A stretch of 64,000 bases of DNA, taken from positions 365,824 to 429,823 of the forward strand of contig CAWHCF010000049.1 of NCBI GenBank assembly GCA_963827655.1. Direction: 5' to 3'. Within the stretch, counting starts at the first letter, position 1; the number at the start of each line of letters is the position of its first letter. The position numbers and the translations under genes were made by a program. Source of the DNA: an uncultured Acidobacteriota bacterium. GTDB lineage: Bacteria; Acidobacteriota; UBA6911. Below the pieces are notes generated by a model. The model was not told the origin of the DNA. It worked only from the letters and a program-made list of their open reading frames with translations, and searched no databases. Positions 10,682-61,205 of this stretch are shown here, in pieces.

Positions 10682-10740
10682 TTTCTTCGTGTCTTAGAGG
10701 TGTTTGTTTCGCAGCGCTAACCACGAAGACATGAAGAAAC
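10682..10740. repeat. REP-like extragenic repeat (inverted pair; core ACCACGAAGACATGAAGAAAC)
   Basis: tttcttcgtgtcttagagg … aaccacgaagacatgaagaaac, immediately 3' of the phosphodiesterase gene. Member of the family also seen at 14955, 28959, 30411, 32802, 39096, 40589, 48046, 53843 and 61156. Confidence 0.6.
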
Positions 10741-10749
10741 CGGGCATCG

Positions 10750-12129
10750 CTAACGGGCGAGCGCCTCGGAGAGCACCTTGCCCGGCAGGCCCGGCATGCT
10801 GAGGTCGAGCAGGTGCGCGATCGTCGGCGCCACATCGTAGTTCGTCGTGTGGGGCAGCCGCGCGCCGCGCCGGACCCGGTCTCCCGAAAGCACGAGCGCA
10901 GGATACATCCGCGGATGGCTCGGCAAGTAGCCGTGGCCGTGGTACGGCCTTTCTTTCGGCATCGGCCGGGTCGACTTTACAGACCGATCGGCGGCCAGGT
11001 GGGTGTCGATGTCGGCCAGGATCGCGTAATGTCCCTGCACGTAGGGACTCTCCTCGTAGCGCGGCAGGCCGAGCCCATGGAGATCTTCCGGGCGCACCAC
11101 GCGGGCGACGCCCTCGAGCTTGAGGGCCCGCTCGAAGACCTTCTCGAGGGCCGGGAGATCGCGCGTCCGGTCGAACTTCTGGTCGAGCTCGATCCAGAGT
11201 GTCCAGTCGCCTCCGTGGAGCCGGACACGGTCCGTGAGGCCGGCCTCTTCGAAGAGCGGGTAAAGGTTGACCTGGCGCGCTACCGTGTGGAAACCGTGGT
11301 CGGCGACGATGAAGAACGTAGTGCGCGCCTCGATTCCGGCGTCCCGGACCGCCTGGCGCAAAACCCCGACGCAGGCGTCGGCGTTGGTCAGAGCGGCGGC
11401 GGCCAGGTAGTGGTCCGGGCCATAGCTATGTTGCGCGTCGTCGGTCGCGAGAAAATGAATGGCAAGCAGGTTGGGACGGTGGGCGCGGATGGTATGGGCG
11501 GCCGCCCGCGCCAGAACCGCGTCGGCGGCCCCCTTGAAGCCCGGCGAGCGGTACCACTCGTAGTAAAGGTCGATCGGAACACCTGCCTGCCGCAGCGCCG
11601 CCAGGAAGCGAGGCTCGGCCCCGGTCGGGTCGGCATTGTTGCTCGAGTCGAGTGTCTCCGGCAGGTTATAGTCGATGGCCGGGTCCCCCTTGGTCTCGGG
11701 CCAGAAGAAAGCGGCCGTCGTCAGTCCTTTGCGCTTCGCGGCGTCGAAGAGCGTCGGGACCAGGATCGACTCCGATCGAAGCTTGTTGGTGGGGTGAAAC
11801 GACTCTCCGGTCGTGCGGTGGCGCAGGCGGTTGGAGAGAACGCCGTGGACCCGGGGCGCGACGCCGGTGATGAGCGTCGTATGGGCTGGATGCGTCACGC
11901 TTGGGAAGACGGTCTCGCTGCTGGCGGCCTGCGCACCCTCGGCAGCCAGCGCCCGGATGTTGGGGAGGGAGAGCTTCGGGTTGTCGAGATGATAGGCCGC
12001 GAAGCCGTCGATCGATACCAGCACCACGTACCCAACCTCGGCTCCGGGCGCGAGCGCGGCCACGATAATGACAAGCAGCGCGGGCAGTGCACGCAGGCAC
12101 AGAAATCGAGGCATAGTCATGAACCGCAT
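10750..12129 (-). CDS. Ectonucleotide pyrophosphatase/phosphodiesterase (type I phosphodiesterase, alkaline-phosphatase superfamily), secreted
   Basis: 459-aa ORF with signal peptide. Family motifs present: VVLVSIDGFAAYHL, PSVTHPAHTTLITG, FIVADHGF, GHGYLPSHPRM. Confidence 0.85.
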   Translation of the reverse strand: MRFMTMPRFLCLRALPALLVIIVAALAPGAEVGYVVLVSIDGFAAYHLDNPKLSLPNIRALAAEGAQAASSETVFPSVTHPAHTTLITGVAPRVHGVLSNRLRHRTTGESFHPTNKLRSESILVPTLFDAAKRKGLTTAAFFWPETKGDPAIDYNLPETLDSSNNADPTGAEPRFLAALRQAGVPIDLYYEWYRSPGFKGAADAVLARAAAHTIRAHRPNLLAIHFLATDDAQHSYGPDHYLAAAALTNADACVGVLRQAVRDAGIEARTTFFIVADHGFHTVARQVNLYPLFEEAGLTDRVRLHGGDWTLWIELDQKFDRTRDLPALEKVFERALKLEGVARVVRPEDLHGLGLPRYEESPYVQGHYAILADIDTHLAADRSVKSTRPMPKERPYHGHGYLPSHPRMYPALVLSGDRVRRGARLPHTTNYDVAPTIAHLLDLSMPGLPGKVLSEALAR

Positions 12130-12345
12130 CTTGTATCACGCGCGCGGTTAAATGGAAAGGACAGGGCTCGTTCGAGTCGCAGTCTGCGACCGGATCCCGC
12201 CCGGTCGACGTGCTCAATCGTCTGGTCCCGCGCCAATCAGGTTCGCGGCAATTGCGCTCCGACCGATTGAAGCGGCTAGAGGCAGTCCCGAATTCGCCGC
12301 ACGTGTGATAGAGTACCTCCCCCACGTAACCAAGGAGGTGATTCG

Positions 12346-12819: not shown

Positions 12820-12888
12820 GTACGGTTGAGGGGCATGGGCGCGATCGTGACGAAGACAGAAAAAAAACGCGATCAGAACGTTTTTCTC

Positions 12889-13623: not shown

Positions 13624-14900
13624 ATGAAGCTTCTGAAAATCTCTGTGTCGTTGGTTTTTATGATCGTGTTGTTCTGGCCAATGATCTGAATTCCGTCACG
13701 GGAGACGATTCCGCCAGAGAAGCTCCCACTACTGACTTGAACGTCCTTACCGACGATATTTTCAACGGGTTCGGCGACAAGGGCCGTCCTGTGGACGAAT
13801 GCTCGAATCCGCCGGTGGCGAACCGCTCGTTCGAAGATAACAAGTTCATATTCGACGAGCGCGAGACTCCGGAGGACGGGCTGGGTCCGGTCTATAACGA
13901 TCTCGGCTGCGGCTCCTGCCATCAGAACCCGGAGAGCGGCGGCATCAGCCAGATCAACGAACTGCGGGCCGGACATGTGTCTAAGCGGCAACTTCGTTGA
14001 TCCTCCAGGTGGTTCGCTGATTCAACTGCGGGCGCTCGCCGCCCCCATACAGGAGCGTCTGGACGACGCCCCGCTCGAAAACATCAGGACCTTTCGAACG
14101 ACTCTCAACGTCATCGGCGACGGCTTCATCGAGGCCATCGCCAACAGTAAAATCGAAGAGATTCAGGATCGACCAGCCGTCAGGCTTCCAGGGCACCATC
14201 ATCAGGGTTCCGGTGGTCGAAGACCGCGGTACGCTTCGCGTGGGCCGCTTCGGCTGGAAGAACCAGCATGCCAGTCTGGTGTCGTTCTCCGGTGATGCAT
14301 ATTTCAACGAAATGGGCATCACCAATCCGTTTGACGGGAATGGCGGAAGGAGAGAGAACACCTCTCTGGGCGACTCGGTCGCAGCATTCGACCGAGTAGC
14401 AGACCCCGAGGACGATGGCGAGGATGTCGAAGCCTTCGCCAATTTCATGAGAGCCACCAGCGCTCCCGGCCGCGGGCCGATCACACTCCGCGGTTCGTCG
14501 CGGTGAGGATCTGTTTGAGGAAGTATCCTGCTCTCAATGTCACACTCCGACGATGACTACCGCAGAACCCGGCACCCTTATCAACGGCGGCCAGTTCAGA
14601 GTGCCGTCAGAGCTGGGCAACAAGATCATCCACCCGTTCAGCGATTTCCTGCTGCACGACATCGGGACCGGTGACGGGATCGTCCAGAACGGCGGTCAGG
14701 CCACCCGGAACATGGTGCGAACGCCGCCGCTTTGGGGTGTGCGCACTCGCCCGATGCTGATGCACGACGGGCAGTCGTTCACCTTCAACGAGGCGATTCA
14801 GCGCCACGCGGGTGTGGGCGGCACAATTTCAAGGAACTCCTTTAACGCCCTGTCCTCCTCGCAAAAGGCGGATCTTATTGCGTTCCTGAAGTCGCTGTGA
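13624..14900 (+). pseudogene. DUF1111 / di-heme cytochrome-c peroxidase-like (thiol oxidoreductase-like) secreted protein, broken by ~4 frameshifts
   Basis: Five consecutive plus-strand pieces. 13624-13689: signal peptide MKLLKISVSLVFMIVLF. 13737-14000: CGSCHQNPESGG heme motif. 13975-14295, then 14213-14506: GRFGWKNQHASL. 14553-14900: DFLLHDIGTGDG…TPPLWG…MHDGQSFTFNEAIQRHAG…ADLIAFLKSL. Frames run 1->0->1->2->0. Confidence 0.7.
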
Positions 14901-14954
14901 AGTCACCGGCCTCAGGGTCAGGTGGAGAATATGGACAGAGGCTCGCCGCTGAGT

Positions 14955-15000
14955 TTTTGGGCGAGCCTCTCGTCTTATCTAAAGCCACCACGAAGACACG
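14955..15000. repeat. REP-like extragenic repeat (CCACCACGAAGACACGAAGACAC)
   Basis: Located 3' of the DUF1111 gene; same family as 10682-10740. Confidence 0.55.
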
Positions 15001-15086
15001 AAGACACAATTCATGAAGTAGCCAGGTCATGTATATGATGTCAGAACTACCAAACAAACTCTTTAATGTAGTCTGTTCTTGCCGGG

Positions 15087-28063: not shown

Positions 28064-28124
28064 CGCCGAGCGCACGGGCTCGAGCGTTTTCGAGGGCAGG
28101 GGGGATGATTTCGAGACAGCTCAT

Positions 28125-28958: not shown

Positions 28959-29029
28959 GCGTCTTCGTGTCTCAGCGGTTAGTACTGAAAAACCAAAGCC
29001 ACCGCCAAGACACGAGGACACAAAGAAGC

Positions 29030-29036
<7 letters not shown>
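28959..29036. repeat. REP-like extragenic inverted repeat pair (gcgtcttcgtgtctcagcgg … ccaccgccaagacacgaggacacaaagaagcttag)
   Basis: Between the convergent LRR and monooxygenase genes; same family as 10682-10740. Confidence 0.6.
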
Positions 29037-30337
<1,301 letters not shown>

Positions 30338-30371
30338 CGAGTTACCTTTCGGGTTTTGACCAGCGAGCTTA

Positions 30372-30392
30372 AGATGACATTTTGTCATTATA
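30372..30392 (-). promoter_or_regulatory. Candidate -10 (TATAAT) followed by perfect palindrome ATGACAAAATGTCAT upstream of the monooxygenase gene
   Basis: Minus-strand reading ttcttctgTATAATgacaaaatgtcatcttaag, ~35-50 nt upstream of the start at 30337. The palindrome overlaps the expected +1 and is operator-like. The -35 is poor. Confidence 0.35.
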
Positions 30393-30410
30393 CAGAAGAA
30401 ACTTGGCGCC

Positions 30411-30461
30411 GCGAAACAAATACCACGACGAAACAAAGACACGAAGAAACGCTAAGCGACC
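30411..30461. repeat. REP-like extragenic repeat (gcgaaacaaataccacgacgaaacaaagacacgaagaaacgctaagcgacc)
   Basis: Near-identical to 61156-61205 (gcgaaacaaataccaccaggatccaaagacacgctagcgc). Confidence 0.6.
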
Positions 30462-30788
30462 GATTCTAATCGTGATGCGCGGGTACGATTGACAAAACGT
30501 GAAAGCGATGCCATTAATAATTCGTTTTTAGTCGCCTAAGTTGTCCTCCCTTCCTGGGGGTCAACGCGGGGGAACCAGATCCTCGAAGTAATTCGAGGCG
30601 GGGCTTATGATCGCATGTGAGTGCGACCACGGCAACTTCCAATGCCGAGCCCGTCAGCTAACCTCGCCGGCATTTGGAAGGGCGATCCTCTAGGGTTGAA
30701 TTCCCAATACCCAAGATCTCCCCAGAAAAACGGCATTGAGCGGTGGAAGCCGCTTGCATCGGGATGCGATTCCCTGGGAGAGGTGCGT

Positions 30789-32776: not shown

Positions 32777-32801
32777 GCGGCGAGTGCGGCCCAGGATTCC
32801 C

Positions 32802-32872
32802 GGTGTTTCCTCATGGCTTCGCGTCTTAGTGGTTCGAGCTGCAGAGCAAAGACCACAAGACGCGAAGAACAA
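32802..32872. repeat. REP-like extragenic inverted repeat pair
   Basis: ggtgtttcc…ttcgcgtcttagtggtt … caaagaccacaagacgcgaagaacaag, between the flotillin and TonB-receptor 3' ends. Confidence 0.55.
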
Positions 32873-32882
32873 GTTTCAGTGG

Positions 32883-35800
32883 TTAGAAGCTCAGCCGGAA
32901 ACCAATCTGAATTCTTCGAGGATCGAACGCGGAGGTGTACCCCAGCGCGACGCTCGGGCCCACGTCCTTTCTGGCCTTGACCCTGTACGGCGGGGCGAAG
33001 CTTGGGCCCACGGTGTTGTTTACGCTGGCGAAGTTCAGGCGATTGAAAAGATTGAAGGCCTCGAAGATTAACTCCAGATTTCGACTCTCTGACCCAAGAC
33101 CGATCCGGCGACCCAGGCGCAAGTCGAGTGTCCAGAAATTCGGGCCTATGCCGGTATTGCGCCCGGCAAAGACAGGACGGTCGGTGGTTGAATGGCGATC
33201 GCCGTTGAGCTCGCCTCCGACCAGCAGATTGAAGGGCCGCGTGCTGTTGGCGCGGAAGATCGGAGTCAGGACAAAGTCTGCGAGGACATTTGAGAGCGCC
33301 GAGTTGCCGGATCCCGACCGATACGGACTCTGAAGAAAGGCATAAATGACGAACTTGTGCCTCTGGTCGAACGCGGAAAGGGCGCGCTCGAGCCGCACGT
33401 TAGTCTGGTCATTAGGCTGGAAATCGCTGTTGTAGTCGGTCACTTCATCAATAGCCTTGCTGAAAGTGTAGCTTCCCGACAGGCTGACATTACCGTGGAA
33501 GCGTTTGCTGATCTCCACGATCATGCCGTGGTAAAAAGCCCTGGCCGAAGATTCGTAGACATTCTCCTGAAACAGCAGCGGGTCTCGAAAGCAAGCGGTG
33601 ATCCCGGCACCCGCGCACCCGGATGCAGCCGTCCAGTCCGAGAATTCCAAGGGGCCCTACCGGGCGTGGAAGGACGTTGATATCCCGGGCGCGCGTAATC
33701 TTGAGGGTACTGCGCGAAGATGTAGTTAGCCGCCGTGCTGAAGCCCGACGCGAACTCGTGTTCGATACCAAGGCTGGCCTGTTGCGAATACGCGTTCCGA
33801 TAGTTCGGGTCGGGCCGGAAGAGCACGGTAAGCGGCGGCCGGGGTCCGGTCTGCGAGACGATGATCCCGAACTGAGCAAGGTCTGCAGGTGTGATCGTCC
33901 GGGTGGTTTGCGGGACGCCAATCACCCCCTGGGCCCGCAGCGTCTGGAATATATTGATGGGGCCGTTCACTGCCAGGGGATTTGCGGCATTGAGCGTGGT
34001 CAAGACCTGCGCAATCTGACGGAAGCCGTCGATTTCGTTCAGGGCATCCACTACATAGTCGATCTGATAGTAGATGGGAGAGTAAAAGATGCCGTAACCG
34101 CCGCGGATAACCGTTCGCTTGTTGTTCCACGGGTCCCACGCGAATCCGAACCGGGGTGCGAAGTTGTTCTTATCTGTGGGAAGCGGGTCGCGGCGATCGT
34201 CCAGTTCGTAACGCAGGCCGTAGTTGAGCGTCAGGTTGGAGCGCAAGTTCCAGCTGTCCTGTGCGTAAAAGGCGACGAAAGGGTCGGTGCTTGCAATCGT
34301 CGGGTCACCGAATCCGGTCTGGTAGGACTGGGGCAGGCCGAGATCGAATGCCTGGAGAGCAGTGATGGGGGCGGCCCCGAGAGCCGGGCTGACGAGAGCG
34401 CCCGGCAGGGTCCCGAATCCGAATCGGCCGCCGAAGAATGTGTGGGACTCGAATTCTCCCCCGCGGATAAGGACGACGGCACCCAATTTAAATCGATGCT
34501 TCCCGCGCGAAAGGATCAGGTTGTCTGCTGCTTCGTACCGTCGCTCGGTATTGAAGGATGGCAGAAAAATATCCCGGTTGAAGAAACCGAAGCCGGTAAT
34601 GTTGAACTCCGGGCCGTTGGGCTCGTTCGGCCGCACATTGTACTTCCGGTAATTCCATTGAAAACGCGCTTCGTTCACCAGGCTCGGACTGAAGATACGG
34701 GTCCAGCCCGCGACCGCGTTACTGTCGAGCCCATGAACGTTGTTCGACCGCGAAAAGCCCAGCAGCGCCCGCGTGCTCTGGTTCCCCTCGTCGGTGTTGG
34801 AGTAGTTGTAGCGCAGGAACAGCTGGTCACTGGTGCTGGCGCTGTGGTCGATTCGCACCGAGAAGGCTTTCGAGTTTGTGGTGAAAGGAAAAACGCCGCT
34901 GTTGGCCCGGAACAGGTCGACGGTGCTTTGCTTGCTGGTCAAAGCCCCGCGTAACACTGTCGCGCAGACCGCGGGTGGCAGCATCGCAGCAGCCGGCACC
35001 GCCGGCAGGCACGCGATCGGAGCGGTGCTGGTATTGGAAGCCAGGGCACTCAGGATTGCGGTTTGAGCCGTCGTGGGCTGAAAGATCGGAAAGGTCGGTC
35101 AGAACCGGCACGGCCGATGATTCGTCGCGATTGAGTCCCTCGAAACCTCCAAAGAAAAAAGTTCGATCCTTCCGCACGGGGAAGCTCAGGGTCCCGCCGT
35201 ACTGCTGCCGTTGGGAAGGTGGCTTGATGCGCTGCGGCGTGGTTCCGACCAGCTCGATGGCAAAGGGATCCCCCGCATCCAGCTTGTCGTGGCGGAAGAA
35301 ACCAAAGGCGCGGCCGTGAAAGTTATTGCTGCCTGACTTGGAGACGATATTGATCACGCCACCACTGGCCCCGCCAAATTCTGCCGCGTAGTTGCTCCGG
35401 TTTATCTGGAACTCCTGCACCGCCTCCTGGCTGAGCGTTGAACGCACGCCGCCGCCCGCGTCGTTTGCCTCCGCTCCGTCCACGGTTACGCTGTTTCCGC
35501 GCCCGTTGCTGCCGTAAAACGAGAGGCCGCTTTGCGCGGCTCTGCGTCACACGAAAGTCGGTATTGTCGGCCAGAGCGTTGGAATCGACCACTCCAGGCG
35601 CCAGGAGGGTAAAGCTCAGGTAGTCGCGGCGATCGATCGGAAGATTGCGAATGTAGTTTTCTTCGATCGTGTTGGATTGTGTGGCGCGCTCGGTCTCAAT
35701 TGCCGGTGGTTCCCCTGAGACGGTGATGGTCTGGGCCGATGTGCCGACCTGAAGGCGAAAGTCGATGGCAAGAGTCTGGCCCACGGTGACGTGAGCGCTG

Positions 35801-36076: not shown

Positions 36077-36295
36077 ATTTTTCTCCTTGGAGGGGAAGGG
36101 TGTATGCATCCCGTTTACAAGCAGGCCCTTTAATGTCCTCATTCTCCCCTAAATAGCCGCGTCCAGCAAGTGTCTCCAGATTCCTGGTGCTTCCTCCTGT
36201 CTTCGCGGCCTGGCGGTATTTGTGTCGACGACTCTAATAAACGCATACGTAGAACACTCTTGTTCCGGAATATACTATGGGCGCGCTCGACAACT

Positions 36296-37882: not shown

Positions 37883-39097
37883 ATGCGGTCGAGGGTTTTA
37901 ATACCGGCTTTTTGTTTAATATTGTTGGTGGTTTCGGGCGCAAGTGCTCAGACTTCAGATGATTTCTTCAGCCCTAATGAACTACATGAGATTCGCCTCT
38001 ACATCCATCCGGTCGATTGGGCTAAGCTGCGCGCAAATTACCTGGACAACACCTACTACGACTGCACCTTTGTGTGGCGCTCCGGGCAGTACGAAGTCGC
38101 CTCCGAGTACATCCAGGTTCGCTCGCGCGGTCTGGGGAGCCGCAGCCCAGACAAACCAGGTCTTCGACTGGATTTCGACCCTTTCAGCGATAGACCCCAG
38201 AGGTTCTTGGGACTCAAGTCTTGCGTCCTGGACAACCTGGTCCAGGACCCTTCCATGCTCAGAGAACGGTTGAGCATGCAACTCTTTGAACGGCTGGGAC
38301 TACCCATCTCCCGCGAAGCCAATGCCCGCCTCTACGTCAACGATCAGTACCTTGGGCTTTACACAATTGTGGAATCCGTGGATAAGGATTTCCTCAAACG
38401 CAACTTCGGCGAAAATGACGGTTATCTTTACGAGTACCAGTGGGTGTATCCCTACTACTTCACCTGGCTGGGCGACGATCTCTCGCGTTATCAAGAGCTG
38501 TTCGACCCCAAGACCCATGAAAAGGATTCCAAGGCGGCGCTCTACGGTCCGATCGAAGCCATGATTCGCGCCATAAATCAGTCCGGCCAGGAAAACCTCG
38601 AGAACTCCATGGCCGGATACCTCGATCTGAGGATGTTCGTAACCCTTGCCGCCGTCGAGAGCTTCCTCGCGGAGGCCGATGGCATCCTGGGCTATGCCGG
38701 GATGAACAACTTTTATTTGTACCGTTTTGAAGGCAAGGATCTGTTCCAGTTCATTCCCTGGGATATGGACAACTCAATCAGGTCGATTAACAGTTCGATC
38801 TGGGACCGGGTCAACGAAAATGAGTTAATGCGCCAGGCGCTGGAGATTCCCGAACTGCGCAGCCTGTTCCTGGAAACATTGTTGACCTGCGCGGATGTGG
38901 CAGGCGGACCCGAGGGATGGCTCGAAGGCGAAATCGAGCGCGAGTACCAGCAGATCCGCGACGCCGCACTCGCCGACCCCCACAAGCCCTATTCGAACGA
39001 CGACTTCGAGAATGAGGTGAATTTCCTGAGGCAGTTTGCCCGCGAGCGCAGCGCAAACGTCTGGAGCGAAGTTGTGGCGAACCTTCCACAACCCTAG
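37883..39097 (+). CDS. CotH-kinase-family secreted protein
   Basis: Signal peptide MRSRVLIPAFCLILLVVSGASA. CotH-like conservation (…NNFYLYRFEGKDLFQFIPWDMDNS…). Confidence 0.75.
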   Translation: MRSRVLIPAFCLILLVVSGASAQTSDDFFSPNELHEIRLYIHPVDWAKLRANYLDNTYYDCTFVWRSGQYEVASEYIQVRSRGLGSRSPDKPGLRLDFDPFSDRPQRFLGLKSCVLDNLVQDPSMLRERLSMQLFERLGLPISREANARLYVNDQYLGLYTIVESVDKDFLKRNFGENDGYLYEYQWVYPYYFTWLGDDLSRYQELFDPKTHEKDSKAALYGPIEAMIRAINQSGQENLENSMAGYLDLRMFVTLAAVESFLAEADGILGYAGMNNFYLYRFEGKDLFQFIPWDMDNSIRSINSSIWDRVNENELMRQALEIPELRSLFLETLLTCADVAGGPEGWLEGEIEREYQQIRDAALADPHKPYSNDDFENEVNFLRQFARERSANVWSEVVANLPQP

Positions 39098-39128
39098 CTT
39101 TTCTTCGCGTCTTAGCGGTGACTTCGAA
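39096..39128. repeat. REP-like extragenic repeat (ttcttcgcgtcttagcggtgacttcg)
   Basis: Immediately 3' of the CotH gene; same family as 10682-10740. Confidence 0.45.
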
Positions 39129-39931
39129 TGAGTTCGAGATCAGCCATATCGGGGCGGTACGTGTATTCAAGGAGGCGGCTGCGCGATGTGCTGCACAGGC
39201 AGGAAACGCGGCGGGGCCTGCTGATTGCCTTCGAGGGACCGGATGGCGCGGGCAAGACGACCCAGCGAAAACTTTTCAAAGAGTGGCTGAAGAGCGAGGG
39301 TCACGAGGTCGTTACAACCAAGTGGAAATCGTCGCCTGTGATCAAGCCACTTCTCACGGCGCGGAAGGCTGCGCGCGCTCTCAATCCCGAAGAGTTCTGC
39401 TTGCTTCACGCCGCCGACTTTCGGCACCGGCTGGAAAACGTGATTCTGCCGGCGTTGTGGCAAGGGAAGATGGTGGTGGCGGACCGGTACTTGTTCACAG
39501 GTCTGGCGCGCGACGGGGCGCGGGGTTTGACACTGGACTGGATGATGTCTGTCTATGGTCCGTTGCTGTGGCCGGACGTGGTCTTCTACTTCTCGGTCTC
39601 TCCGGAGACCTCGGGCCGCCGCGTCACCGCGAGTCGCACACCAAAGTTCTACGAGGCAGGCCAGGACATCACCGATATCGAGGATCCGCTCGAAAGCTTC
39701 AGGCAGTTTACCGGACGTGTGATTGAAGAATACGAAGCGCTGGCGCTGATCTTCCGATTCGTTAAGGTGGACGCCGAGCAGTCGATTCATGAACAGCATC
39801 GATTGATTCGTCAAGTATTCCAGGAGGGGCAGCGGCGTCCCTGGGCCGAATGGAATGTGGATGCGGTGCTGGACTGGCTGGCGAGTAAACCCGTGATGGA
39901 CCTTGGAATGGAGATCCCAATTGGGGCGTGA
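39128..39931 (+). CDS. Thymidylate-kinase-family P-loop kinase (alternative GTG start at 39188 is more likely)
   Basis: P-loop LIAFEGPDGAGKTTQ and DRY motif VVADRYLFTGLA. The ~20-aa N-terminal extension has no counterpart in the family. Confidence 0.75.
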   Translation: MSSRSAISGRYVYSRRRLRDVLHRQETRRGLLIAFEGPDGAGKTTQRKLFKEWLKSEGHEVVTTKWKSSPVIKPLLTARKAARALNPEEFCLLHAADFRHRLENVILPALWQGKMVVADRYLFTGLARDGARGLTLDWMMSVYGPLLWPDVVFYFSVSPETSGRRVTASRTPKFYEAGQDITDIEDPLESFRQFTGRVIEEYEALALIFRFVKVDAEQSIHEQHRLIRQVFQEGQRRPWAEWNVDAVLDWLASKPVMDLGMEIPIGA

Positions 39932-40553: not shown

Positions 40554-40588
40554 AAATTCTTCCGCCTTCCCCTTCAGCCTGCTCCGAA

Positions 40589-40633
40589 CCTTAGTCGGCT
40601 GGTGTTTCTTCGTGTCTTTGTGTCTTTGTGGTT
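40589..40633. repeat. REP-like extragenic repeat (ggtgtttcttcgtgtctttgtgtctttgtggtt)
   Basis: Reverse-orientation copy of the AACCACAAAGACACAAAGACACGAAGAAACACC family. Confidence 0.55.
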
Positions 40634-40825
40634 ACTTTCCCCTCAGCACTTTTTACTTTTCACTCTCCACAGGAGTTCTGCCAAATTTCCTTGTCCGGAA
40701 TGAGCGGCGATAATAAGATCGACGCACCGGGAACGTCGAGATGCACTAACGCCTGCGCATGTTAGCATTCGCAAAAAGGGGGTGGGGGATGAAGCTTGTC
40801 TGCATATTATGCTCCGCCTGGGTGA

Positions 40826-41221: not shown

Positions 41222-41284
41222 ATTCTCGGAGTTTTCGGGTCCACTCACGAAGACCTGACGCTACCCGTATCACCGGAGAGCAGG

Positions 41285-48025: not shown

Positions 48026-48045
48026 AAATAGAAGCGCAACGCGCC

Positions 48046-48130
48046 TGGTGCTTCTTCGTGTCTTTCAGTCTTAACGGTATTTGTCAGACAGCTCCAACCA
48101 CGAAGACACGAAGGAACACTAAGTCGGTTG
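48046..48130. repeat. REP-like extragenic inverted repeat pair (ggtgcttcttcgtgtctttcag … aaccacgaagacacgaaggaacactaag)
   Basis: Two arms in opposite orientation separated by ~30 nt. Same family as 10682-10740. Confidence 0.6.
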
Positions 48131-48226
48131 GTTCATAATTACGCCGACGTATTGGGCAGAGTCGGAGTCGGCTGTGTTGTTGCCTAGGGCCGAAGGCCCG
48201 TCAGTGAGTAGCCCCGCCCGTAAGGG

Positions 48227-48300
48227 CGGGGTTTTCAAAGGGTCCCTGACACGAGGTCCGAAGGACCGGCACTCCGGCTGTGTCGCACCTTCGGCGCTCC
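48227..48300. repeat. ~75-bp dispersed hairpin-rich repeat (copy 2), preceded by ccccgcccgtaagggcgggg and gggccgaaggccc hairpins
   Basis: ccctgacacgaggtccgaaggaccggcactccggctgtgtcgcaccttcggcgctcc matches 23265-23322. Confidence 0.6.
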
Positions 48301-48435
48301 TTTTTAATATTGCAAGTATGATCCCGGCCTTACGGCCGGGCCTACTCTCTGGCGGCCCTTCAGGCCTTACTGCCAAAATACAGTCACCGTAATTGCGAAC
48401 AGCAGCACTAAGGACGAATTTTTGAAGCTCTGTAC

Positions 48436-49428: not shown

Positions 49429-49820
49429 GGCCAGGTCAACGGAAGAACTGCCGGTTAGAAACTTGATGGGAACCAGTTGCTGACTCCTTTCACGGCCATG
49501 CGGGAGGGCACATCAATCGGATACTCGACCTCGGTCGCATTTTGCAACTCTGATAGGAAGGGCTCCCTCTCCAGGGTCGAATCGACCATGAGAAGGTCTG
49601 TCCGGCATTCAGGTATTTCAGTTCCGCTATACGGCAGCATGCCGCATTATAACCCTGTCCGCTGGTTATGAGATGCCTGGACGGCCGAGGCCTGCCGCTG
49701 CAGGACAATCCAGATGCGTAGCCGACTTAATGTTTTTCCTGGTCCGGCGAACACGCCGGCCTTGGTCCAAAGCAGGCGTTGCAGGTAACGTAGCTCGGAG
49801 ATCACGCGAGGGGGGATTGA

Positions 49821-50087: not shown

Positions 50088-50090
50088 TGC

Positions 50091-53710: not shown

Positions 53711-53842
53711 AAAGTGCTGAGGGGAAAGTAGGGAGGAAGCGATGGCGGAGAGAAAAAGAGTCGAACGGTTTGAGGATTTGATTGCGTGGCAGAAGGCGCG
53801 CGTTGAGGCTCTCTGCCCTCAAGCGGAGGAGGTGAACATCGG

Positions 53843-53875
53843 TCGCTTAGCGTTTCTTTGTGTCTTTGTGTCTTG
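53843..53875. repeat. REP-like extragenic repeat (cgcttagcgtttctttgtgtctttgtgtcttgg)
   Basis: Between soxG and soxB; same family as 10682-10740. Confidence 0.55.
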
Positions 53876-53901
53876 GAGGTTGTTTTTTCCGCCGAGCACT
53901 T

Positions 53902-55101: not shown

Positions 55102-55368
55102 CAAGAAAAATGGATCGGCGAGTCCTCGACGCCGCAGGTTCTCACCGGCGCAGCTCATTCTGTCGCCGAGGAAATGTCGGTAACAATGGTGCCCCCCTGG
55201 TTCGGAGCTTCCGTCATCAATCGTGGTGAAGACCAATCCGGATTTTTTTGGTCGTCGCCGATTGTCCGAATCTGTCCGTCTGAAGCTCCCGCAACGGAGA
55301 GTGCGGCTATTTTTCGATCATTGAACCGGCAAAAGTGGGCTGCTCTTTCGAGCCAGCGATCAAGATTT

Positions 55369-55944
55369 TCATGAGTTCTTAGACCCAGCCTCTCCACCGT
55401 CTTCAGGCGGATAATAATAATGAGGCACTGGGTCTAAACGCCGGAACAGGACCACGCCTCCCTCGAATGGCTCAGCGCGGAGCACGTCCTGCCGGTGGCG
55501 GGCCGCCTCGAGACCAGGCACGTCGTCCGCCACCAGCGTGATTCCGAACAAGGTATCGGCTTGGTACTCCTCGGGATCAATATCGGCTTCGGCCTCCTCA
55601 TCGAAGAACACGTACTGCAGGTGGAGGCGCCGCAGGAGTTCTTCTCCGATGTGAATCAAGGTGCGCGTCAGTTCTTTCCGCCCATGCCGGTTCCCCACCG
55701 CCTCGAACAGTTCTTCGTCAATGTCCAGCGTAGAAGCGACCCATCCGTCCCGCTGGTAGGATCGGCAGGTCATCGGCAGGCCCTCCCCGACGAAGGAAAG
55801 AATCCACTGCCTCACTCGCATCCCATCCATCGAAACGCCGGCGTCGCCGGGATTCAGCCCGGCGTGTTCCAGAGCCTGATCCAAAGTGGCGGCATCCTCG
55901 AGCGATCCCGGCCAACCAAAGGCTAAGCTGACAAAGGCACCCAT
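55369..55944 (-). CDS. Acidic small protein immediately downstream of the toxin-like gene (putative immunity protein)
   Basis: 191 aa. SD ggtgagg 6 nt upstream of ATG. Start lies 3 nt after the stop of the upstream gene. Acidic stretch FFDEEAEADIDPEEYQ. Confidence 0.45.
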   Translation of the reverse strand: MGAFVSLAFGWPGSLEDAATLDQALEHAGLNPGDAGVSMDGMRVRQWILSFVGEGLPMTCRSYQRDGWVASTLDIDEELFEAVGNRHGRKELTRTLIHIGEELLRRLHLQYVFFDEEAEADIDPEEYQADTLFGITLVADDVPGLEAARHRQDVLRAEPFEGGVVLFRRLDPVPHYYYPPEDGGEAGSKNS

Positions 55945-55947
55945 CGG

Positions 55948-56928
55948 CTACCTCACCCGGAAGTTCGAAGCGCCTGACGGTGGCGCAGTCAGTTTGACGC
56001 CGGCCAGTTTGTTGGCCGCATTGGTCCAGCCGCTAATGAAATTCCCCGAAAGATCGGTGACCACGATCTGATTCCCCTTAAAGGCATGCACGGCCCATGG
56101 AGAATTGTGATACGGACCGAGATAGACTTCATCGGCTTTGGCGACCACTTCGTCCACGGCGTTCTTAAACTGGGCATGGGCTGCCTTATCCGTCGCCTTC
56201 CACGACGTCGCGACACCGAAGTCGGCAGCATGTTTCCACTTCTTCTGGAGGCTCGACGCGGACATCGTCGTGGCCGTGAGCGCAGCGGCCTTGTCGAGAT
56301 CGGCCTTGCCAACCTTTTGAAGCGCTTCGCCCCCATATTTGATCATCGCATCGGCGCCGTCCTGCGTGACGAGCTTGACGAAGTCATCCACGCCGACCTT
56401 GGCGATCGTGTCCTTGAGGGTCAGCCCGTGGAACGTCGTCGCGTCCATACTCTTGAACAGGCGCTCGGTGACGCTGGCGCCTAGCTCTTTGGTCAGTTTC
56501 TCGACGACGTTCTGGCCCAATTCCTTGAGTAACTTGCCCGCGGCTTCCGCGCCAAACTTGTCTACAAGACCCTTGAGACCCGCCGCCGTCATGTCGGCGG
56601 TGAGATCGCCCACCGCTTTGGCTCCCATCTCCCGCGTCAGCGCCTGAACCGCGTCCACGCCAAGCGTGTCCACAAGCTCCTTCAACCCCTTAGCTCCGAG
56701 GCGGTCGGTAAGTTCCTTGACGGCGTTCACTCCGAGCTTCTCTACGACGGTTTTGAGCGTCGCCGAGCCAAGCGTCTCGGCGAGTTGTTTCACGCCCTGG
56801 GTGCCGAGGTTATCTACGACTTGTTTCAAAGTTCGTGGGCTGAGCTCCTCGGCTAGTTCGGCTGTCAGCTTAGGGCCGAGTTCCTTCGCCAGCTTCTCGA
56901 AGCCTTCCTTGCCGAACTCTTTGATCAT
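55948..56928 (-). CDS. Helical-repeat protein (LGxxAVKxLxxxLG ~12-aa repeats) with distinct C-terminal ~110-aa toxin-like domain
   Basis: 326 aa. ~14 tandem repeats, then …KKWKHAADFGVATSWKATDKAAHAQFKNAVDEVVAKADEVYLGPYHNSPWAVHAFKGNQIVVTDLSGNFISGW… ATGA overlap with the upstream 85-aa ORF. The upstream frame also reads sensibly (…VTREMIKEFGK), so this may be one fused protein. Confidence 0.5.
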   Translation of the reverse strand: MIKEFGKEGFEKLAKELGPKLTAELAEELSPRTLKQVVDNLGTQGVKQLAETLGSATLKTVVEKLGVNAVKELTDRLGAKGLKELVDTLGVDAVQALTREMGAKAVGDLTADMTAAGLKGLVDKFGAEAAGKLLKELGQNVVEKLTKELGASVTERLFKSMDATTFHGLTLKDTIAKVGVDDFVKLVTQDGADAMIKYGGEALQKVGKADLDKAAALTATTMSASSLQKKWKHAADFGVATSWKATDKAAHAQFKNAVDEVVAKADEVYLGPYHNSPWAVHAFKGNQIVVTDLSGNFISGWTNAANKLAGVKLTAPPSGASNFRVR

Positions 56929-57182
56929 CTCGCGGGTAACCGTTTGCCGCTCAGGCGTATCGTGACCTCCAACGCGGCGATCTTACCCGCGACCTTGCTA
57001 CGCACCAGCTTGCTCAGCCACTTCACGCCCTTACCAATCCCCTTGGCGCCCTTGGCCACATATTTCAGAAGGTTGCCCAGCCCTGGGATCGCGAAAATGC
57101 CGGAGATGATCCGGCCGACGATGCCGACTTTCTCCCCCGTAACGGGATTGACGCCGGTCACAGCAATGATGGCATCCTTCAC
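56925..57182 (-). CDS. Pre-toxin TG (PT-TG)-like segment
   Basis: …FAPGVSNVKDAIIAVTGVNPVTGEKVGIVGRIISGIFAIPGLGNLLKYVAKGAKGIGKGVKWLSK matches the PT-TG pattern (TGxDPxTGE + Gly/Lys-rich tail). Frame is sensible upstream of the GTG, back to ~57215 (DFAPGVSN). Confidence 0.45.
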   Translation of the reverse strand: MKDAIIAVTGVNPVTGEKVGIVGRIISGIFAIPGLGNLLKYVAKGAKGIGKGVKWLSKLVRSKVAGKIAALEVTIRLSGKRLPAR

Positions 57183-58068
57183 ATTGCTTACTCCCGGGGC
57201 GAAATCGGTCCCAGATCGGCGATGATTTCTCCGACATCGGTTTTATCCTCCTTCTCTCAGGTTTCTGCTCTCGCTCCTCTTCGGAAAGAGGCGGCGCCGA
57301 AGACAGCGGGGCGGGAAACATGTAGGGTTGTCCGGCGTTCTTGTCGGACCGGGGCGAGAAGACGTAAACGTCATAATCGAAGGGTTGCTTCAGCCAGAGC
57401 TTGGAGTCAGGCTCGCGCTCAGGGTGGTACCCGACGCGTTCCGCGAACGCGCGCGCGACAATCCCTTTGGTGGGGTGCCGAAAGGCCGTGTAGGATGGGC
57501 GAATCGTGCCGCCCTTCACGTACTTGCGATAGACGAAACTCGCCGTGGTTTCCGCTAAGAGATCGCGATCAATCCCGGCGTTCTCGGCGATGATGGCGCG
57601 AACGAGCAGTGCGCCGGGCTTTGTGCTGTAGAACGTAGATCCAGCCCGGTGCCAGCGATATCCAGGGAAGCTCTCCTCATCGATGGGGTCGGTTGCTTCG
57701 GTGGGAGATTTGTCATCAGGATGACGTTGAAGCGTGGGCGACGCCGTAGCTCCTATCTGGAGGCCTGCGTTGGCGGGCGCCTGGAGTAAACGCTGCATGT
57801 AGCGGTTGCCGTAATGCTGCTGCAGCCGCTCGGCCAGTGCGTGCTGCACTGGACGGCTGGCCGGGCTACCGCGTTGCCGGCCAGTGAGGAGGGAGCGGTG
57901 GCGTTCGACGGGCGGATTCGTCAGTCTTCCGCCGCCGTTCGTCTGCGTCGAAGCCGCATCGGCCACGCGCTGTGCCGGTGTCAACTGCGGTTGTGGTGCG
58001 AGCTCCGGTTCGGTGGAGTGCTTAAGCTCTTCGGTTTTCTTACTCGTGGATTCTCTGCTCGCCGTCAT
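57031..58068 (-). CDS. N-terminal region of a polymorphic-toxin-like protein with DUF4157-type leader (…ALAERLQQHYGNRYMQRLL…LQRHPDD)
   Basis: 345-aa ORF. Protein-like to ~57215, then Arg/Cys-rich nonsense (…CEGCHHCCDRRQSR…) while the PT-TG frame becomes sensible. This implies a frameshift near 57205-57215 and a single large protein 58068->55948. Confidence 0.5.
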   Translation of the reverse strand: MTASRESTSKKTEELKHSTEPELAPQPQLTPAQRVADAASTQTNGGGRLTNPPVERHRSLLTGRQRGSPASRPVQHALAERLQQHYGNRYMQRLLQAPANAGLQIGATASPTLQRHPDDKSPTEATDPIDEESFPGYRWHRAGSTFYSTKPGALLVRAIIAENAGIDRDLLAETTASFVYRKYVKGGTIRPSYTAFRHPTKGIVARAFAERVGYHPEREPDSKLWLKQPFDYDVYVFSPRSDKNAGQPYMFPAPLSSAPPLSEEEREQKPERRRIKPMSEKSSPIWDRFRPGSKQCEGCHHCCDRRQSRYGGESRHRRPDHLRHFRDPRAGQPSEICGQGRQGDW

Positions 58069-58423
58069 TGAGCGGATAGGTAGGGCAAGGAGCCTTTTTC
58101 GGGGGTAGTTCTGCGGCGGCTTTCCTCAACGGTTTCTGAGTTCAGCTAACTTCCGGCAGTTCCTGCACCGTTGCCAATCGGGCCGGAAGGGCTATCTTAC
58201 CTCGATCGATGCCGACAACGGTGGAGTTTTCGCACACTCCGTCTTCCGGCGCGAGCTGCGGGCGCTACTCGAGGAGCAGCGAGCGAACCAGCGTGGTCCG
58301 AGGTCCGAGGGATCGGCCCTCCGAATGTACAGGACCTTCGGCACGTATACGACCTTCAGCGCTCATGGTTGTGAGCCCCAATTTTCCCGGCCTCAGTCCG
58401 GGTATAGCGAAGCAACGCCTGGG

Positions 58424-58470
58424 GCGGTAGCAAGCTTGCGCCTTGTGCCGCGGGCACCTTGCTGCCGCGA
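58424..58470. repeat. GCAAGCTTGC-type palindromic repeat (gcggtagcaagcttgcgccttgtgccgcgggcaccttgctgccgcg)
   Basis: Matches 23096-23120 and 24850-24905; preceded by hairpin cccggcctcagtccggg. Confidence 0.5.
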
Positions 58471-58796
58471 AATGACCAATCTCCAGGCGCGGGTCTGATC
58501 GGCGCCACACAAGCCAAAACGCTCCGGTCAATCGAGAACTGTTCACTGAATTGTTCACACTTCTCACAGACGGGCTAGTACGGTTGGCCCTTGTGGCTTT
58601 CCCCGTCTTCGTTCTCGGCCAGCGAGCACTGTCTGAATCTCAGGACTGTATTTGGTGGAGATAGATTTTCCTTTCGGGAATAATGCAAATCAGCCGCTTC
58701 CCGTGGGATCACCCGAACGAGGAATCACTGTCCCGACGGATCGCGCGGCGAAAATCTTGTTGATACTGGATGAATCAAAGGGAGGTGGCCGTACCC

Positions 58797-61154
58797 ATGC
58801 TTCGAATTCTACCGCTTCTTTTCCTTGTTTCCGCGGCGCTCGCCCAGACACCCGATCGCGCGCCGGCTTCCGACGAGTGGGGATACCGGCCGCTCGACGG
58901 TTCGATGGTCTCGCTGAACCCGCCTTCTTTGACCTGGGTACACGAACCCGAGAGCGCTTCGTACGTTCTCGAATGGTCACAGGACGCTGATTTCAAGGAC
59001 GTCGCGACCGTGAAAGACCTGCCCTGGAGCGTCTACACGTACAACCAGCCGTTGTCAGCCGGAACGTATCACTGGCGCTACCGGATTATCAGGCGAAATG
59101 GCGACCCGTCACCGTGGAGCCGCATCCGGCGATTCACGGTGCCGGCTGACGCAGTGGTTTTTCCGCAGCCGAGCATGGATGAATTGCGCCGCAGGATTCC
59201 CAGCCAGCACCCGCGCGTATTCGTCACCCAGGGAGACCTTGTGCGCCTTCGGACGTGGGCGGAAGGCGAGGGCCAGCAAGCCTTCCAGAAGCTCCTGCGA
59301 AGGGCGGACGAACTGCTCGTCAGCGAGCCGACAGCCGAACCTTCCGTACGCGCCAGCGCGTCCGATCCGGCGACCAACCAGTTCTGGTGGTCCAATCGTC
59401 TCCAGGCGATCCGGGCTGCCCAGGAGGCCGAGGTCCTGTCATTCGTTTACCTTCTGACTGGAAACGAAAAATACAAGGCGCCAACCCGGCGCCGGATTCT
59501 TGGTCTGGCCTCATGGGATCCTGATGGGCCGACCAACTGGAAGGTGAACTGCGAAGCCGCGAAACCCATGCTCCATCGCCTTGCGCGCGTCTATGACTGG
59601 GGATACGCAACACTCAGCGATGAGGAACGCCGGAGGGTGCAGGCGGTTCTGCTACGGCGGGCGATGGATGCGTGGAACAGCGGTGAAGTGAGACAGGGCG
59701 CCGGTCACCTGAACCAGCCCTACAACAGCCACGGCAACCGTACCTGGCACAAGCTCGCTGAAAACGCGCTCGCCACTTTCGGCGAAACGCCCGAGTCCGA
59801 GAAGTTTTTGCACTATGCGGTCTCGAAGTTTTTCGCCGCATACCCCGTTTGGGCCGATGACGATGGCGGCTGGCACGAAGGCCTCAACTATTGGGCGGGC
59901 TACATGGCCAAGGCTACGTGGTGGTTGTCGCTGGCTAAAACAACGCTTGGTATCGACGGCTTCAAGAAACCATTCTTTACCCATTTCGCGGATTACGCGC
60001 TGTACACGGCTCCGCCGGGCTCGCCGAACATGGGCCTCGGTGACCTCGCCTACCGACCGCCTTCCCCTTCCTGGTCATTCCTCTATTACGTGATTCGCGA
60101 GACCCGGCAACCGTCTTGGGCCTGGTGGGCCGGGCAATGGAAGATCCAGACCGAGCCGGATGAACCGGTGCTTGCCTTCCTGTGGGGCGCCGCGCCGCCG
60201 GTCGAGCCTCGGACTCCCGCGGACCTGCCTTCGTCCAAGGTCTTTAGCGGCATCGGCGTCGCCATCTTGAACAGCACGCTCATCGACGCCGCTACCAATG
60301 TGCAGGTCCGCTTCAAGTCGAGTCCGTTTGGCAGCCGCAGCCATGGACTGGACCCCCAGAATTCTTTCACCTTCACAGCCTACGGAGAACCGCTCCTTGT
60401 CAACAATACGTATCGCGATTTGTACGGAAGTCCGTTTCATAAGGGTTGGTGCTGGACCACCAGGGCTCATAATGCCGTGCTGGTGAATGGCGAGGGTCAA
60501 AAGTCCCGTTCGCCGGATCCGGCGGGCCGCATCGTTTCATGGAGTTTTCAGGACGGCCTGGACCACGTGGCAGGCGATGGAACCGCCTCTTATGAAGGCA
60601 GGCTAAAGCGCGCCGTGCGGCATGTTCTCTTCGTCAAGCCTGATCTGGCCATCATCGTTGACGATCTGGAAGCGCCACGGCCGAGCACGTTTCAGTGGAT
60701 GCTGCACGGACTCAACCCCTTCAAGATTGATGAACAGGCCGCGCGTCTGGAGCGAAACAACGCCAGCGTTCTGGTTGACTACGTCAGTTCCCAACCGCTC
60801 AGTCTCCGTCAGTGGACTGGTTACGACCCGCCGCCTGACGCGCGGTACCTCGCCTCCATCAATCACCCGGGAATTCCGGAACAGTGGCACCTGGAAGCCG
60901 CCACATCTTCGCCTGCCGAACGCAGTTTCACCCTGACTGTGCTCCGTCCTTTTCGCCGCGATCAACCTCCGGCATCGAAAATCAAAGTGGAACAGAACGA
61001 CACGGCAGTTCTGCTGCGGGTTCATGGTGATTCCGAAACTACGGTCGCGTTGCGCAAACCCGGCGCCGCAAAAGCGCTGATCGGCAGTCTGTCATTTAGT
61101 GATTTCGCCCTCGTGCGCAAGGCCGCTCGGGAGTGGAGGGTGAAAGCGGAGTAG
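58797..61154 (+). CDS. Heparinase II/III-like polysaccharide lyase family protein (alginate-lyase-like N-domain + Hepar_II_III C-domain), secreted
   Basis: SD aagggagg + ATG 58797 (MLRILPLLFLVSAALA signal peptide). Large alpha/alpha toroid + beta-sandwich pattern with W-rich motifs (…WHEGLNYWAGYMAKATWW…HGLDPQNSFTFTAYGEPLLVN…). Confidence 0.7.
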   Translation: MLRILPLLFLVSAALAQTPDRAPASDEWGYRPLDGSMVSLNPPSLTWVHEPESASYVLEWSQDADFKDVATVKDLPWSVYTYNQPLSAGTYHWRYRIIRRNGDPSPWSRIRRFTVPADAVVFPQPSMDELRRRIPSQHPRVFVTQGDLVRLRTWAEGEGQQAFQKLLRRADELLVSEPTAEPSVRASASDPATNQFWWSNRLQAIRAAQEAEVLSFVYLLTGNEKYKAPTRRRILGLASWDPDGPTNWKVNCEAAKPMLHRLARVYDWGYATLSDEERRRVQAVLLRRAMDAWNSGEVRQGAGHLNQPYNSHGNRTWHKLAENALATFGETPESEKFLHYAVSKFFAAYPVWADDDGGWHEGLNYWAGYMAKATWWLSLAKTTLGIDGFKKPFFTHFADYALYTAPPGSPNMGLGDLAYRPPSPSWSFLYYVIRETRQPSWAWWAGQWKIQTEPDEPVLAFLWGAAPPVEPRTPADLPSSKVFSGIGVAILNSTLIDAATNVQVRFKSSPFGSRSHGLDPQNSFTFTAYGEPLLVNNTYRDLYGSPFHKGWCWTTRAHNAVLVNGEGQKSRSPDPAGRIVSWSFQDGLDHVAGDGTASYEGRLKRAVRHVLFVKPDLAIIVDDLEAPRPSTFQWMLHGLNPFKIDEQAARLERNNASVLVDYVSSQPLSLRQWTGYDPPPDARYLASINHPGIPEQWHLEAATSSPAERSFTLTVLRPFRRDQPPASKIKVEQNDTAVLLRVHGDSETTVALRKPGAAKALIGSLSFSDFALVRKAAREWRVKAE

Positions 61155-61155
61155 C

Positions 61156-61205
61156 GCTGCGAAACAAATACCACCAGGATCCAAAGACACGCTAGCGCTT
61201 CTTCC
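61156..61205. repeat. REP-like extragenic repeat (gcgaaacaaataccaccaggatccaaagacacgctagcgcttcttcc)
   Basis: Directly after the heparinase-like stop; ~80% identical to 30411-30461. Confidence 0.55.

Follow-up and report, generated by a model that had tools for sequence, protein, structure and literature searches.

The 64,000-nucleotide stretch of an uncultured Acidobacteriota bacterium analysed here (GenBank contig CAWHCF010000049.1, positions 365,824 to 429,823; hereafter the window) carries a family of short intergenic repeats that a preliminary description, made from the sequence alone, had taken for genome-specific elements of the repetitive extragenic palindromic (REP) kind. We propose, with a probability that we put at roughly 55%, that these repeats are gene-less solo arms and arm pairs of a hairpin-forming selfish element spread across many bacterial phyla. 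The arm, about 30-40 nt long, would read RCCAC-N-AAGA, CAC-N-AAGA, CAC-N-AAGA, AA-CAC-N-AAGA, with three to four CACNAAGA octamers, and the complete element would be a cassette of about 0.5 kb in which two arms surround a gene for a 130-aa GxxExxY protein of the PD-(D/E)XK nuclease fold. The preliminary description was in no position to see this connection.

The gene was recognised in an all-against-all BLAST comparison of 1926 open reading frames (ORFs) near units, where a small cluster of three loci consisted of GxxExxY proteins (TIGR04256, PF13366 PDDEXK_3). At four loci (L002, L029, L037 and L053; retrieved loci carry the prefix L) a GxxExxY gene lies between inverted units. Because these loci had been selected by the motif itself, further genes were sampled by protein similarity alone, and each lineage that was fetched turned out to have arms: L085-L094 (JGI metagenome contigs), L095-L098 (Cloacimonetes), L099 (WOR-3), L100-L103 (Marinimicrobia), L104, and L105-L106 (Rhodothermales). 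Arms flank the GxxExxY gene in 10 of 10 independent cassettes, six of which were picked by protein similarity alone. Conversely, a profile built from the protein-selected arms only had window units as its eleven best matches, five of them at E <0.05; the window repeats belong to the same sequence family as the cassette arms.

The cassette, about 0.5 kb long, consists of an arm, 10-20 nt, the ATG of a 393-nt ORF (130 aa), the stop codon and the inverted arm, which begins right after the stop and reads TTTT-N-GTG.CTT-N-GTG.CTT-N-GTGGC. In L104 and L105 the element extends from the TGA of the upstream gene to one base short of the next ATG. The number of octamers is polymorphic: in the downstream arm of one Marinimicrobia locus, GTGTCTTT octamers number one, two or three depending on the sample. 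Compared with L088 and L089, L085 shows an extra arm and a remnant of the gene's tail. In the predicted fold of the L095 cassette the arms make up a closing stem of about 35 bp and the start codon is buried. No cargo other than GxxExxY was recognised between inverted units. Across phyla (Rhodothermales, Thermodesulfobacteriota, Cloacimonetes, Marinimicrobia and WOR-3) the proteins show 73-84% identity. They belong to a very large family: all but 20 of 8000 scored candidates matched PF13366/TIGR04256 at E 1e-10 or better; its function is listed as unknown and multiple transfers have been described (PMC3424549).

Every window copy and every fetched cassette is located between protein genes or next to a tRNA gene, and none lies in helix 9, 25 or 45 of 23S rRNA. 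The TIGRFAM comments on TIGR04256 and TIGR02436 presumably place members inside 23S rRNA intervening sequences (IVS); if so, curators may already know part of the picture. GxxExxY genes and genes for four-helix-bundle proteins sit mostly on contigs of about 1-5 kb, which fits assembly breaks brought about by repeats. The idea that the units are the usual arms of four-helix-bundle IVS protein (IVP) genes was discarded: a CACNAAGA-encoded tail was found in 0 of 120 IVP homologues, whose tails come from other arms with a 7-nt period.

The unit follows one grammar, RCCAC-N-AAGA / CAC-N-AAGA / CAC-N-AAGA / AAC, or approximately three CACNAAGA octamers, and is often followed by AC-N-AAG.. or GCTAAGCG. 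Seven of the eight octamer positions are fixed across phyla, N alone being free, and three is the commonest number of repeats (157 of 244 runs). An exact search with the 23-mer pattern AAGACACRAAGACACRAAGAAAC, for which a uniform model predicts about 0.07 chance matches in 596 Gb, matched at least 77 loci, with record titles spanning at least 15 phyla. Named in these titles are Acidobacteriota, Bacteroidota, Ignavibacteria, Desulfobacterota, Chlamydiota, Planctomycetota, Verrucomicrobiota, Alpha- and Betaproteobacteria, Chloroflexota, Cyanobacteria, Gemmatimonadota, Synergistota, Abditibacteriota, Calditrichota, KSB1, Sumerlaeota and Desantisbacteria; the carriers include isolates (Desulfonema magnum and two Sphingopyxis species). 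Contamination is excluded, because the flanks of these loci vary in sequence and in G+C content. An irregular 8-8-10 spacing (AAGAAACAC-N-AAGA) is common to the window and the cross-phylum loci, and the wide sharing of this AAGA-AA-CAC-N-AAGA irregularity after three regular octamers favours common descent over convergence. The family is therefore not genome-specific, contrary to what had been claimed. It gave no match in 5,426 E. coli genomes, while plasmid and viral collections returned one weak plasmid match and one viral contig, and a plasmid or phage vehicle was rejected.

The earlier remark of not having seen this consensus described is in line with the searches: the elements match no Rfam covariance model, either at the gathering score or at E up to 5, full-text sequence searches of searchable papers came back empty, and keyword searches of the literature gave general REP and IVS papers only. 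The repeat belongs to a pan-bacterial family, apparently undescribed, that is tied to GxxExxY genes, and is REP-like in behaviour without being a REP. Sigma-E/extracytoplasmic function (ECF) or sigma-54 promoters, parS, attC, CRISPR repeats and uptake sequences were also considered and, judged by eye, dropped because their motifs do not fit.

Four arrangements of units were seen: singles, inverted pairs with outward RCCAC ends, inverted pairs with inward RCCAC ends, and tandem arrays. In most phyla the loops of the RCCAC-out pairs are short, and in Betaproteobacteria the interiors measure 100-130 nt; the RCCAC-in form is that of all four window pairs. Subfamilies are lineage-specific, with a flank GCGCYGCGAAACAAATACC at 10697, 30411 and 61159 of the window and a spacer GGTATTTGT..GAC..CTC at 48070 and 36200. 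Such flanks and spacers, common to copies of one genome, indicate copying within genomes. Tandem, convergent and divergent spacers, of which there are 271, 85 and 75 in the 77 listed loci and the window, hold 98, 40 and 30 units. Of the units in tandem spacers 46 are sense and 52 antisense, a near equality that a directional cis-regulatory signal would not give; the comparison of orientation with gene ends proposed in the preliminary description, made on these loci, revealed no bias.

Several further repeat arrangements were seen. Satellite-like tandem arrays of units are present in L029 (1300-1710), L043 (770-1250 and 2280-2800) and L020 (2766-2898), with periods of 47 and 70 nt, as is a pure (AAGACACA)n run at a contig end; directly downstream of the L029 array comes a frameshifted GxxExxY gene. 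Other hairpin or repeat families with a periodic plan are found in L019 (5520-5700), L082 (6530-6612), L001 (1880-1915) and, at many sites, L052. Their motifs include ACGAGGGN/CGTGGNA beside a tRNA gene, GGTCCNTG/GGACCAAS and ACCGCTGAGCACGCAGAGGAAA; in L052 (Gemmatimonadales), GTCATCCCGAGCGAAGCGAGGGATC and CCCCGGCG..CGCCGGGGTGAC modules are interspersed with CACNAAGA units. The similar plan of these families suggests that there may be a wider superfamily of periodic-arm elements.

Since T is missing from one strand of the unit and A from the other, self-pairing of a single unit is impossible and folding is limited to inverted pairs. All four window pairs (10659-10765, 28959-29041, 32789-32896 and 48031-48132) can be folded from either strand, with energies of -19 to -36 kcal/mol and z of -3.0 to -5.5, in agreement with the earlier claim of hairpin-forming inverted pairs. 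The remaining loci include six single arms (6 of 11), which cannot fold. Window pairs measure 70-108 bp and betaproteobacterial copies 200-250 bp. A role as terminators, also suggested earlier, finds no support: T-runs are missing after all four pairs on both strands, the units are not biased in orientation with respect to transcription, and in window 28000-41500, which contains pairs 2 and 3, terminator-like sites coincide with no pair and are no more numerous than in shuffles.

Within the window the 21-mer ACCACGAAGACACGAAGAAAC, with up to three mismatches, matches 6 times versus 0 in each of 100 shuffles, and site-by-site reading together with the profile search brings the total to 15 units, which occupy 11 intergenic loci as four inverted pairs, six singles and one decayed copy (Table 1). 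The decayed copy at 36176 had been missing from the earlier list, whose bracketed site at 37581 was recovered by no search of the window and is left out of the count. The occurrence of both orientations is borne out by units on the + and - strands across the window, and the tandem GAAGACAC repeats are indeed present in the core. The GCTAAGCG/CGCTTAGC ends are exact at two places (30451 and 53844), with looser CTAAG/CTTAG variants at others. With genes called from ORFs, a stop codon lies no more than 40 nt from 7 of the 11 loci, as the preliminary description had said of most copies; those named are 10740, 28959/29030, 32789/32883, 39097, 40585 and 61156. Loci 30408 and 36176 lie between divergent genes, and 48031 and 53834 have a start codon 6-20 nt downstream.

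Table 1. Repeat units in the 64-kb window.
Feature	Position	Strand	Remarks
Unit, left arm of pair 1	10659..10716	-	Core 10681-10701; lineage-specific extension GCGCTGCGAAACAAAC; profile E 7e-8; folds with right arm
Unit, right arm of pair 1	10705..10765	+	Core 10720-10740; ends 9 nt from stop of gene 10750-12129(-); profile E 2e-8
Single unit (ACCACGAAGACACGAAGACAC)	14974..15029	+	86 nt past stop of 14553-14900; cassette-arm profile E 0.0055
Unit, left arm of pair 2	28959..28993	-	Directly 3' of TAA stop of 28125-28958; site reading, profile, fold
Unit, right arm of pair 2	28994..29041	+	Overlaps stop of convergent gene 29030-30289(-); cassette-arm profile E 0.0026
Single unit, 5' extension GCGCCGCGAAACAAAT, 3' GCTAAGCGACCGAT	30408..30468	+	Between divergent genes, upstream of c-di-AMP riboswitch
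Unit, left arm of pair 3	32789..32849	-	Profile E 3e-9; folds with right arm
Unit, right arm of pair 3, degenerate	32838..32896	+	Site reading, profile, fold
Decayed half-copy	36176..36228	-	Arm and spacer (GGTATTTGTGTCGAC..CTCTAA) common to pair 4; profile E 8.5e-4
Single unit	39076..39132	-	Begins at TAG stop of CotH gene 37922-39097; site reading, profile
Single unit, three perfect octamers and ACCAGCCGACTAAG	40585..40648	-	Top match to cassette-arm profile, E 3.5e-4
Unit, left arm of pair 4	48031..48092	-	6-20 nt upstream of start of 47132-48025(-)
Unit, right arm of pair 4	48087..48132	+	1.7-kb segment missing from L081 starts just past arm
Single unit (CGCTTAGCGTTTCTTTGTGTCTTTGTGTCTTGGAGGT)	53834..53888	-	Fused to remnant of four-helix-bundle (23S rRNA IVS protein) gene; cassette-arm profile match
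Single unit, truncated after ..CAAAGACACG	61156..61211	+	1 nt past TAG stop of 58770-61154; 2.3-kb segment missing from L081 starts inside

Homologue names point to an acidobacterium of Bryobacterales type as the host of the window. A close relative, L081 (21 kb), is syntenic with the window and about 93% identical to it. The orthologue of pair 4 in L081 (3746-3829) is only 82% identical and hence less conserved than the surrounding genes. Three large differences between window and L081 fall exactly at units. Missing from L081 are window 48120-49805 (1.7 kb, with an MHYT-kinase fragment gene and an Acido-Lenti-1 pair), which starts at a unit, and window 61180-63491 (2.3 kb, with a 561-aa ORF that has no Pfam match), which starts inside one. 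At window 53800-53940 a unit is fused to fragments from the head and the tail of a four-helix-bundle gene (TIGR02436/PF05635), the remnant at 53742-53842 joining the first approximately 20 codons to the last approximately 15. In L081 the gene is intact (7830-8246) and lies between inverted arms with a 7-nt period (GTGAAAA/GTAGAAA/GTGCTGA), with a partial 3' duplication at 8252-8431. Also missing from L081 are window 55101-58644 and 58924-59696.

Other elements insert into or beside units. A miniature inverted-repeat transposable element (MITE) of about 150-240 bp with GGGYTCGCRCAGAAATAASTTCRCATTCTG ends and a CTAA target duplication (IS5-like YTAR) occurs at window 40985-41222 and at L081 11556-11705 and 14569-14723, and one L081 copy sits inside a CACNAAGA unit at CC|CTAA|GAC. 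At 3849-5204 of L063, a Vicinamibacterales metagenome-assembled genome, a gene for an IS110-family transposase (451 aa; motifs read by eye) has a CACNAAGA unit on one side and a complete CACNAAGA hairpin on the other and does not itself have CACNAAGA ends, an arrangement reminiscent of IS110-family elements that target REPs. Two metagenome relatives of the window CotH gene differ in the unit next to it (39076-39132), which is kept in L078 (96.7% identical) and missing past the 82%-identical orthologue in L079; the latter is not a clean empty site, because synteny is broken there. The orthologous spacer of one relative holds a different periodic hairpin. In a comparison of L019 with L057, arm conservation is close to that of coding DNA and identity of the interior only about 67%; one octamer was gained or lost on both arms at once.

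These observations can be accommodated in the following scheme. In the transcript, pairing of the two arms is predicted to give a stem of about 25-35 bp that encloses the ORF. Copies would multiply within a genome and occupy intergenic spacers, in many cases abutting stop or start codons, and would lose the ORF, change their number of octamers by slippage and decay to single arms. The GxxExxY nuclease may drive the copying, for example by cutting arms or cruciforms that are then repaired from a filled copy. The stems may be substrates of RNase III, and the window copies may be neutral or affect neighbouring transcripts only mildly. Tentatively, we extend this scheme to a claim that we consider possible and clearly less probable than the first: CACNAAGA arms and the GxxExxY gene may constitute an unrecognised self-propagating ‘hairpin-homing’ class akin to ORF-bearing rRNA IVS, in which the nuclease recognises the octamer array or cruciform and drives copying of the cassette into ORF-less hairpins, in at least 15 phyla.

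Several points weigh against the proposal that the window repeats are arms of such an element. No pair of filled and empty sites was found that would show the ends of the element, a target duplication or mobility. In the window pairs the RCCAC ends face the spacer, the reverse of the cassette topology (an RCCAC-in doublet also separates adjacent cassettes in L085). A GxxExxY gene was found neither in the window nor in L081, so its tie to this genome is one of sequence family, and among the motif matches listed only 4 of 77 loci carry the gene. GxxExxY proteins have no known activity. The free N agrees between the two arms of a pair in 46% of cases versus 39% for shuffled partners, with the register uncertain. 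Finally, the conservation of the L019/L057 arms above their interior leaves room for a function at the level of the host.

Such a function is the essence of one alternative, in which the repeats are cis-acting RNA hairpins selected by the host as 3'-end stabilisers, RNase III processing sites or terminators. We regard it as rather unlikely. The stems are stable, many copies abut stop codons, E. coli REPs within 15 nt of stop codons are reported to affect translation (cited in PMC6006769), and the L019/L057 comparison points the same way; however, the single arms that make up 6 of the 11 window loci cannot fold, the absence of both an orientation bias and a U-tract speaks against this explanation, and the G.U versus A.C asymmetry of HSG8 hairpins, set against gene direction, is split three for and three against. 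In addition, the orthologous pair 4 decays faster than its coding flanks, and in a relative the orthologous spacer carries another periodic hairpin. It is still less probable that the units are binding-site arrays for a conserved host protein that binds DNA or RNA and recognises CAC-N-AAG every 8 nt, comparable to metbox arrays or HutP/TRAP triplet arrays. The fixed octamer with its free N, the modal three repeats and the persistence of single arms would suit such a protein, but no candidate was identified, the units are patchily distributed, octamers vary freely in number, and the arms are tied to one gene family and not to promoters or operons.

The remaining alternatives invoke known kinds of mobile element. 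Ordinary MITEs, deletion derivatives of an insertion sequence (IS) with a DDE transposase whose terminal inverted repeats (TIRs) would be the CACNAAGA arms, are an improbable explanation. The betaproteobacterial copies, with inverted ends of 40-45 bp that are often bounded by TA, have the expected appearance, and one of their interiors is common to several genomes; terminal inverted repeats around a non-coding interior, expected of MITEs at 70-300 bp, are also present here. Against this, about 100 loci yielded no transposase between inverted units, interiors mostly differ among copies of one genome, palindromy often runs beyond the arms where direct target duplications would be expected, and plasmids and viral contigs are nearly devoid of the motif. 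The least probable alternative in our estimate is the one closest to the preliminary description, namely REP elements or bacterial interspersed mosaic elements (BIMEs) moved by a REP-associated tyrosine transposase (RAYT or TIRYT). The organisation indeed resembles that of BIMEs or of REP doublets forming hairpins (REPINs), with singles, inverted doublets in both topologies and clusters, and other IS elements insert into the units; furthermore, non-palindromic ‘TIR repeats’ tied to Y1 transposases occur in Acidobacteria (PMC3733652), and Class 3 Y1 genes have been found in Acidobacteria and Planctomycetes (PMC6006769). The REP/BIME-like character is thereby upheld as far as multicopy, intergenic, partly hairpin-forming and REP/BIME- or MITE-like organisation goes. 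It breaks down at the unit itself, which is not a palindrome and lacks the 5' GT[AG]G foot: units start with RCCAC and end with AAGAAAC, GTGG appearing only as the complement at the 3' end. GTAG-tagged hairpins exist separately in the window (48186-48231 and 48322-48367), the sequence is common to many phyla when REPs are described as species-specific (PMC6006769), and the sole ORF recurring between units is GxxExxY. For the proposed tyrosine transposase there is no evidence in the window or the 77 listed loci, where a regular expression found no Y1-like motif and no transposase recurred. In all, three of four defining features of this class failed.

Returning to the arm-and-cassette interpretation, the nearest described relatives of the cassette family are the ORF-bearing 23S rRNA IVS. 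Those of Coxiella and Leptospira, which encode the S23p ORF, are regarded as selfish elements of unknown mobility, have a stem cut by RNase III and carry tandem heptamers of variable number just upstream of the ORF (PMC4990558). The two have in common a small ORF that is prone to decay within terminal inverted repeats, a stem of about 28-35 bp, and short 7-8-nt tandem repeats of variable number with an AGAAGA-like stretch just upstream of the ORF; moreover, one window unit is fused to the remnant of exactly such an S23p/IVP gene. Unlike the rRNA IVS, our elements lie between protein genes and not in rRNA helices, encode a PD-(D/E)XK GxxExxY protein in place of a four-helix bundle, have arms conserved across phyla, and mostly lack the ORF. 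With REPs, BIMEs and REPINs they share short length, abundance, an extragenic position near gene ends, occurrence as singles, inverted doublets and clusters, and use as IS targets, but the unit is non-palindromic and not species-specific, and the associated gene encodes a nuclease-fold protein. Bacterial MITEs (Correia/NEMIS, RUP, ERIC and Nezha) are plausibly similar in their pairs of 70-250 bp with inverted ends, non-coding and co-transcribed with neighbours, and differ in that here the arms consist of octamer repeats common to distant phyla, with no cognate DDE IS and no clear target duplication found. The TIR repeats of TIRtrons (Di Nocera 2013) are also non-palindromic inverted repeats, long and distinct from REPs, that flank a small gene, occur as singles, dimers and groups and are reported in Acidobacteria; their gene, however, is a Y1 transposase and their motif, GGGGWSAS, is unrelated. 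Free-standing homing endonuclease genes resemble the cassette as small nuclease-fold genes with a strong signal of horizontal transfer, whose flanks also occur gene-less, but the flanks here are inverted repeats and not a host gene, and homing is here only inferred.

The surroundings of the window units hold some further features. A c-di-AMP riboswitch of the ydaO type (30523-30687, +; 54.9 bits, E 5e-10) lies 55 nt downstream of a unit and upstream of 30813-31247 and of the SPFH-domain gene 31226-32776. Among ORFs 14553-14900, 32883-33650, 9718-10332, 48436-49386 and 40870-40985, several cover their Pfam models only in part (a DHOR C-terminus, a fragment of an outer membrane protein (OMP) barrel and kinase fragments), and what looks, read by eye, like the C-terminal remnant of a DUF1501-like gene is also present. 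Gene fragments seem to be abundant in the region, and several of them adjoin units. The GTAG-tagged hairpins mentioned above are the Rfam matches to Acido-Lenti-1 (48186-48231, -, 51 bits; 48322-48367, +, 38.5 bits), which lie within the 1.7-kb segment missing from L081. Each reads GAGTAG, an 8-bp G+C stem, a GTAA loop and the stem again, and the two are inverted about 90 nt apart. The pair resembles a GTAG-tagged REP doublet, and the ‘Acido-Lenti-1 RNA’ may be a REP/REPIN family.

For genome analysis, the practical consequence is that arms free of stop codons yield spurious ORFs and contig breaks, many related genes being found on contigs of about 1 kb, and that arms mark points of insertion, deletion and rearrangement, as between the window and the 93%-identical L081. 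For the biology of the family, it is significant that a non-coding arm of about 30-40 nt keeps one grammar across Acidobacteriota, Bacteroidota, Desulfobacterota, Chlamydiota, Planctomycetota, Proteobacteria, Cyanobacteria and others. Its link to GxxExxY gives a very large family without assigned function a concrete, testable substrate, and ties in the long-standing question about the nature and movement of ORF-bearing rRNA intervening sequences. A hairpin-homing class, if true, would explain both this very large protein family and the origin of IVS-like insertions.

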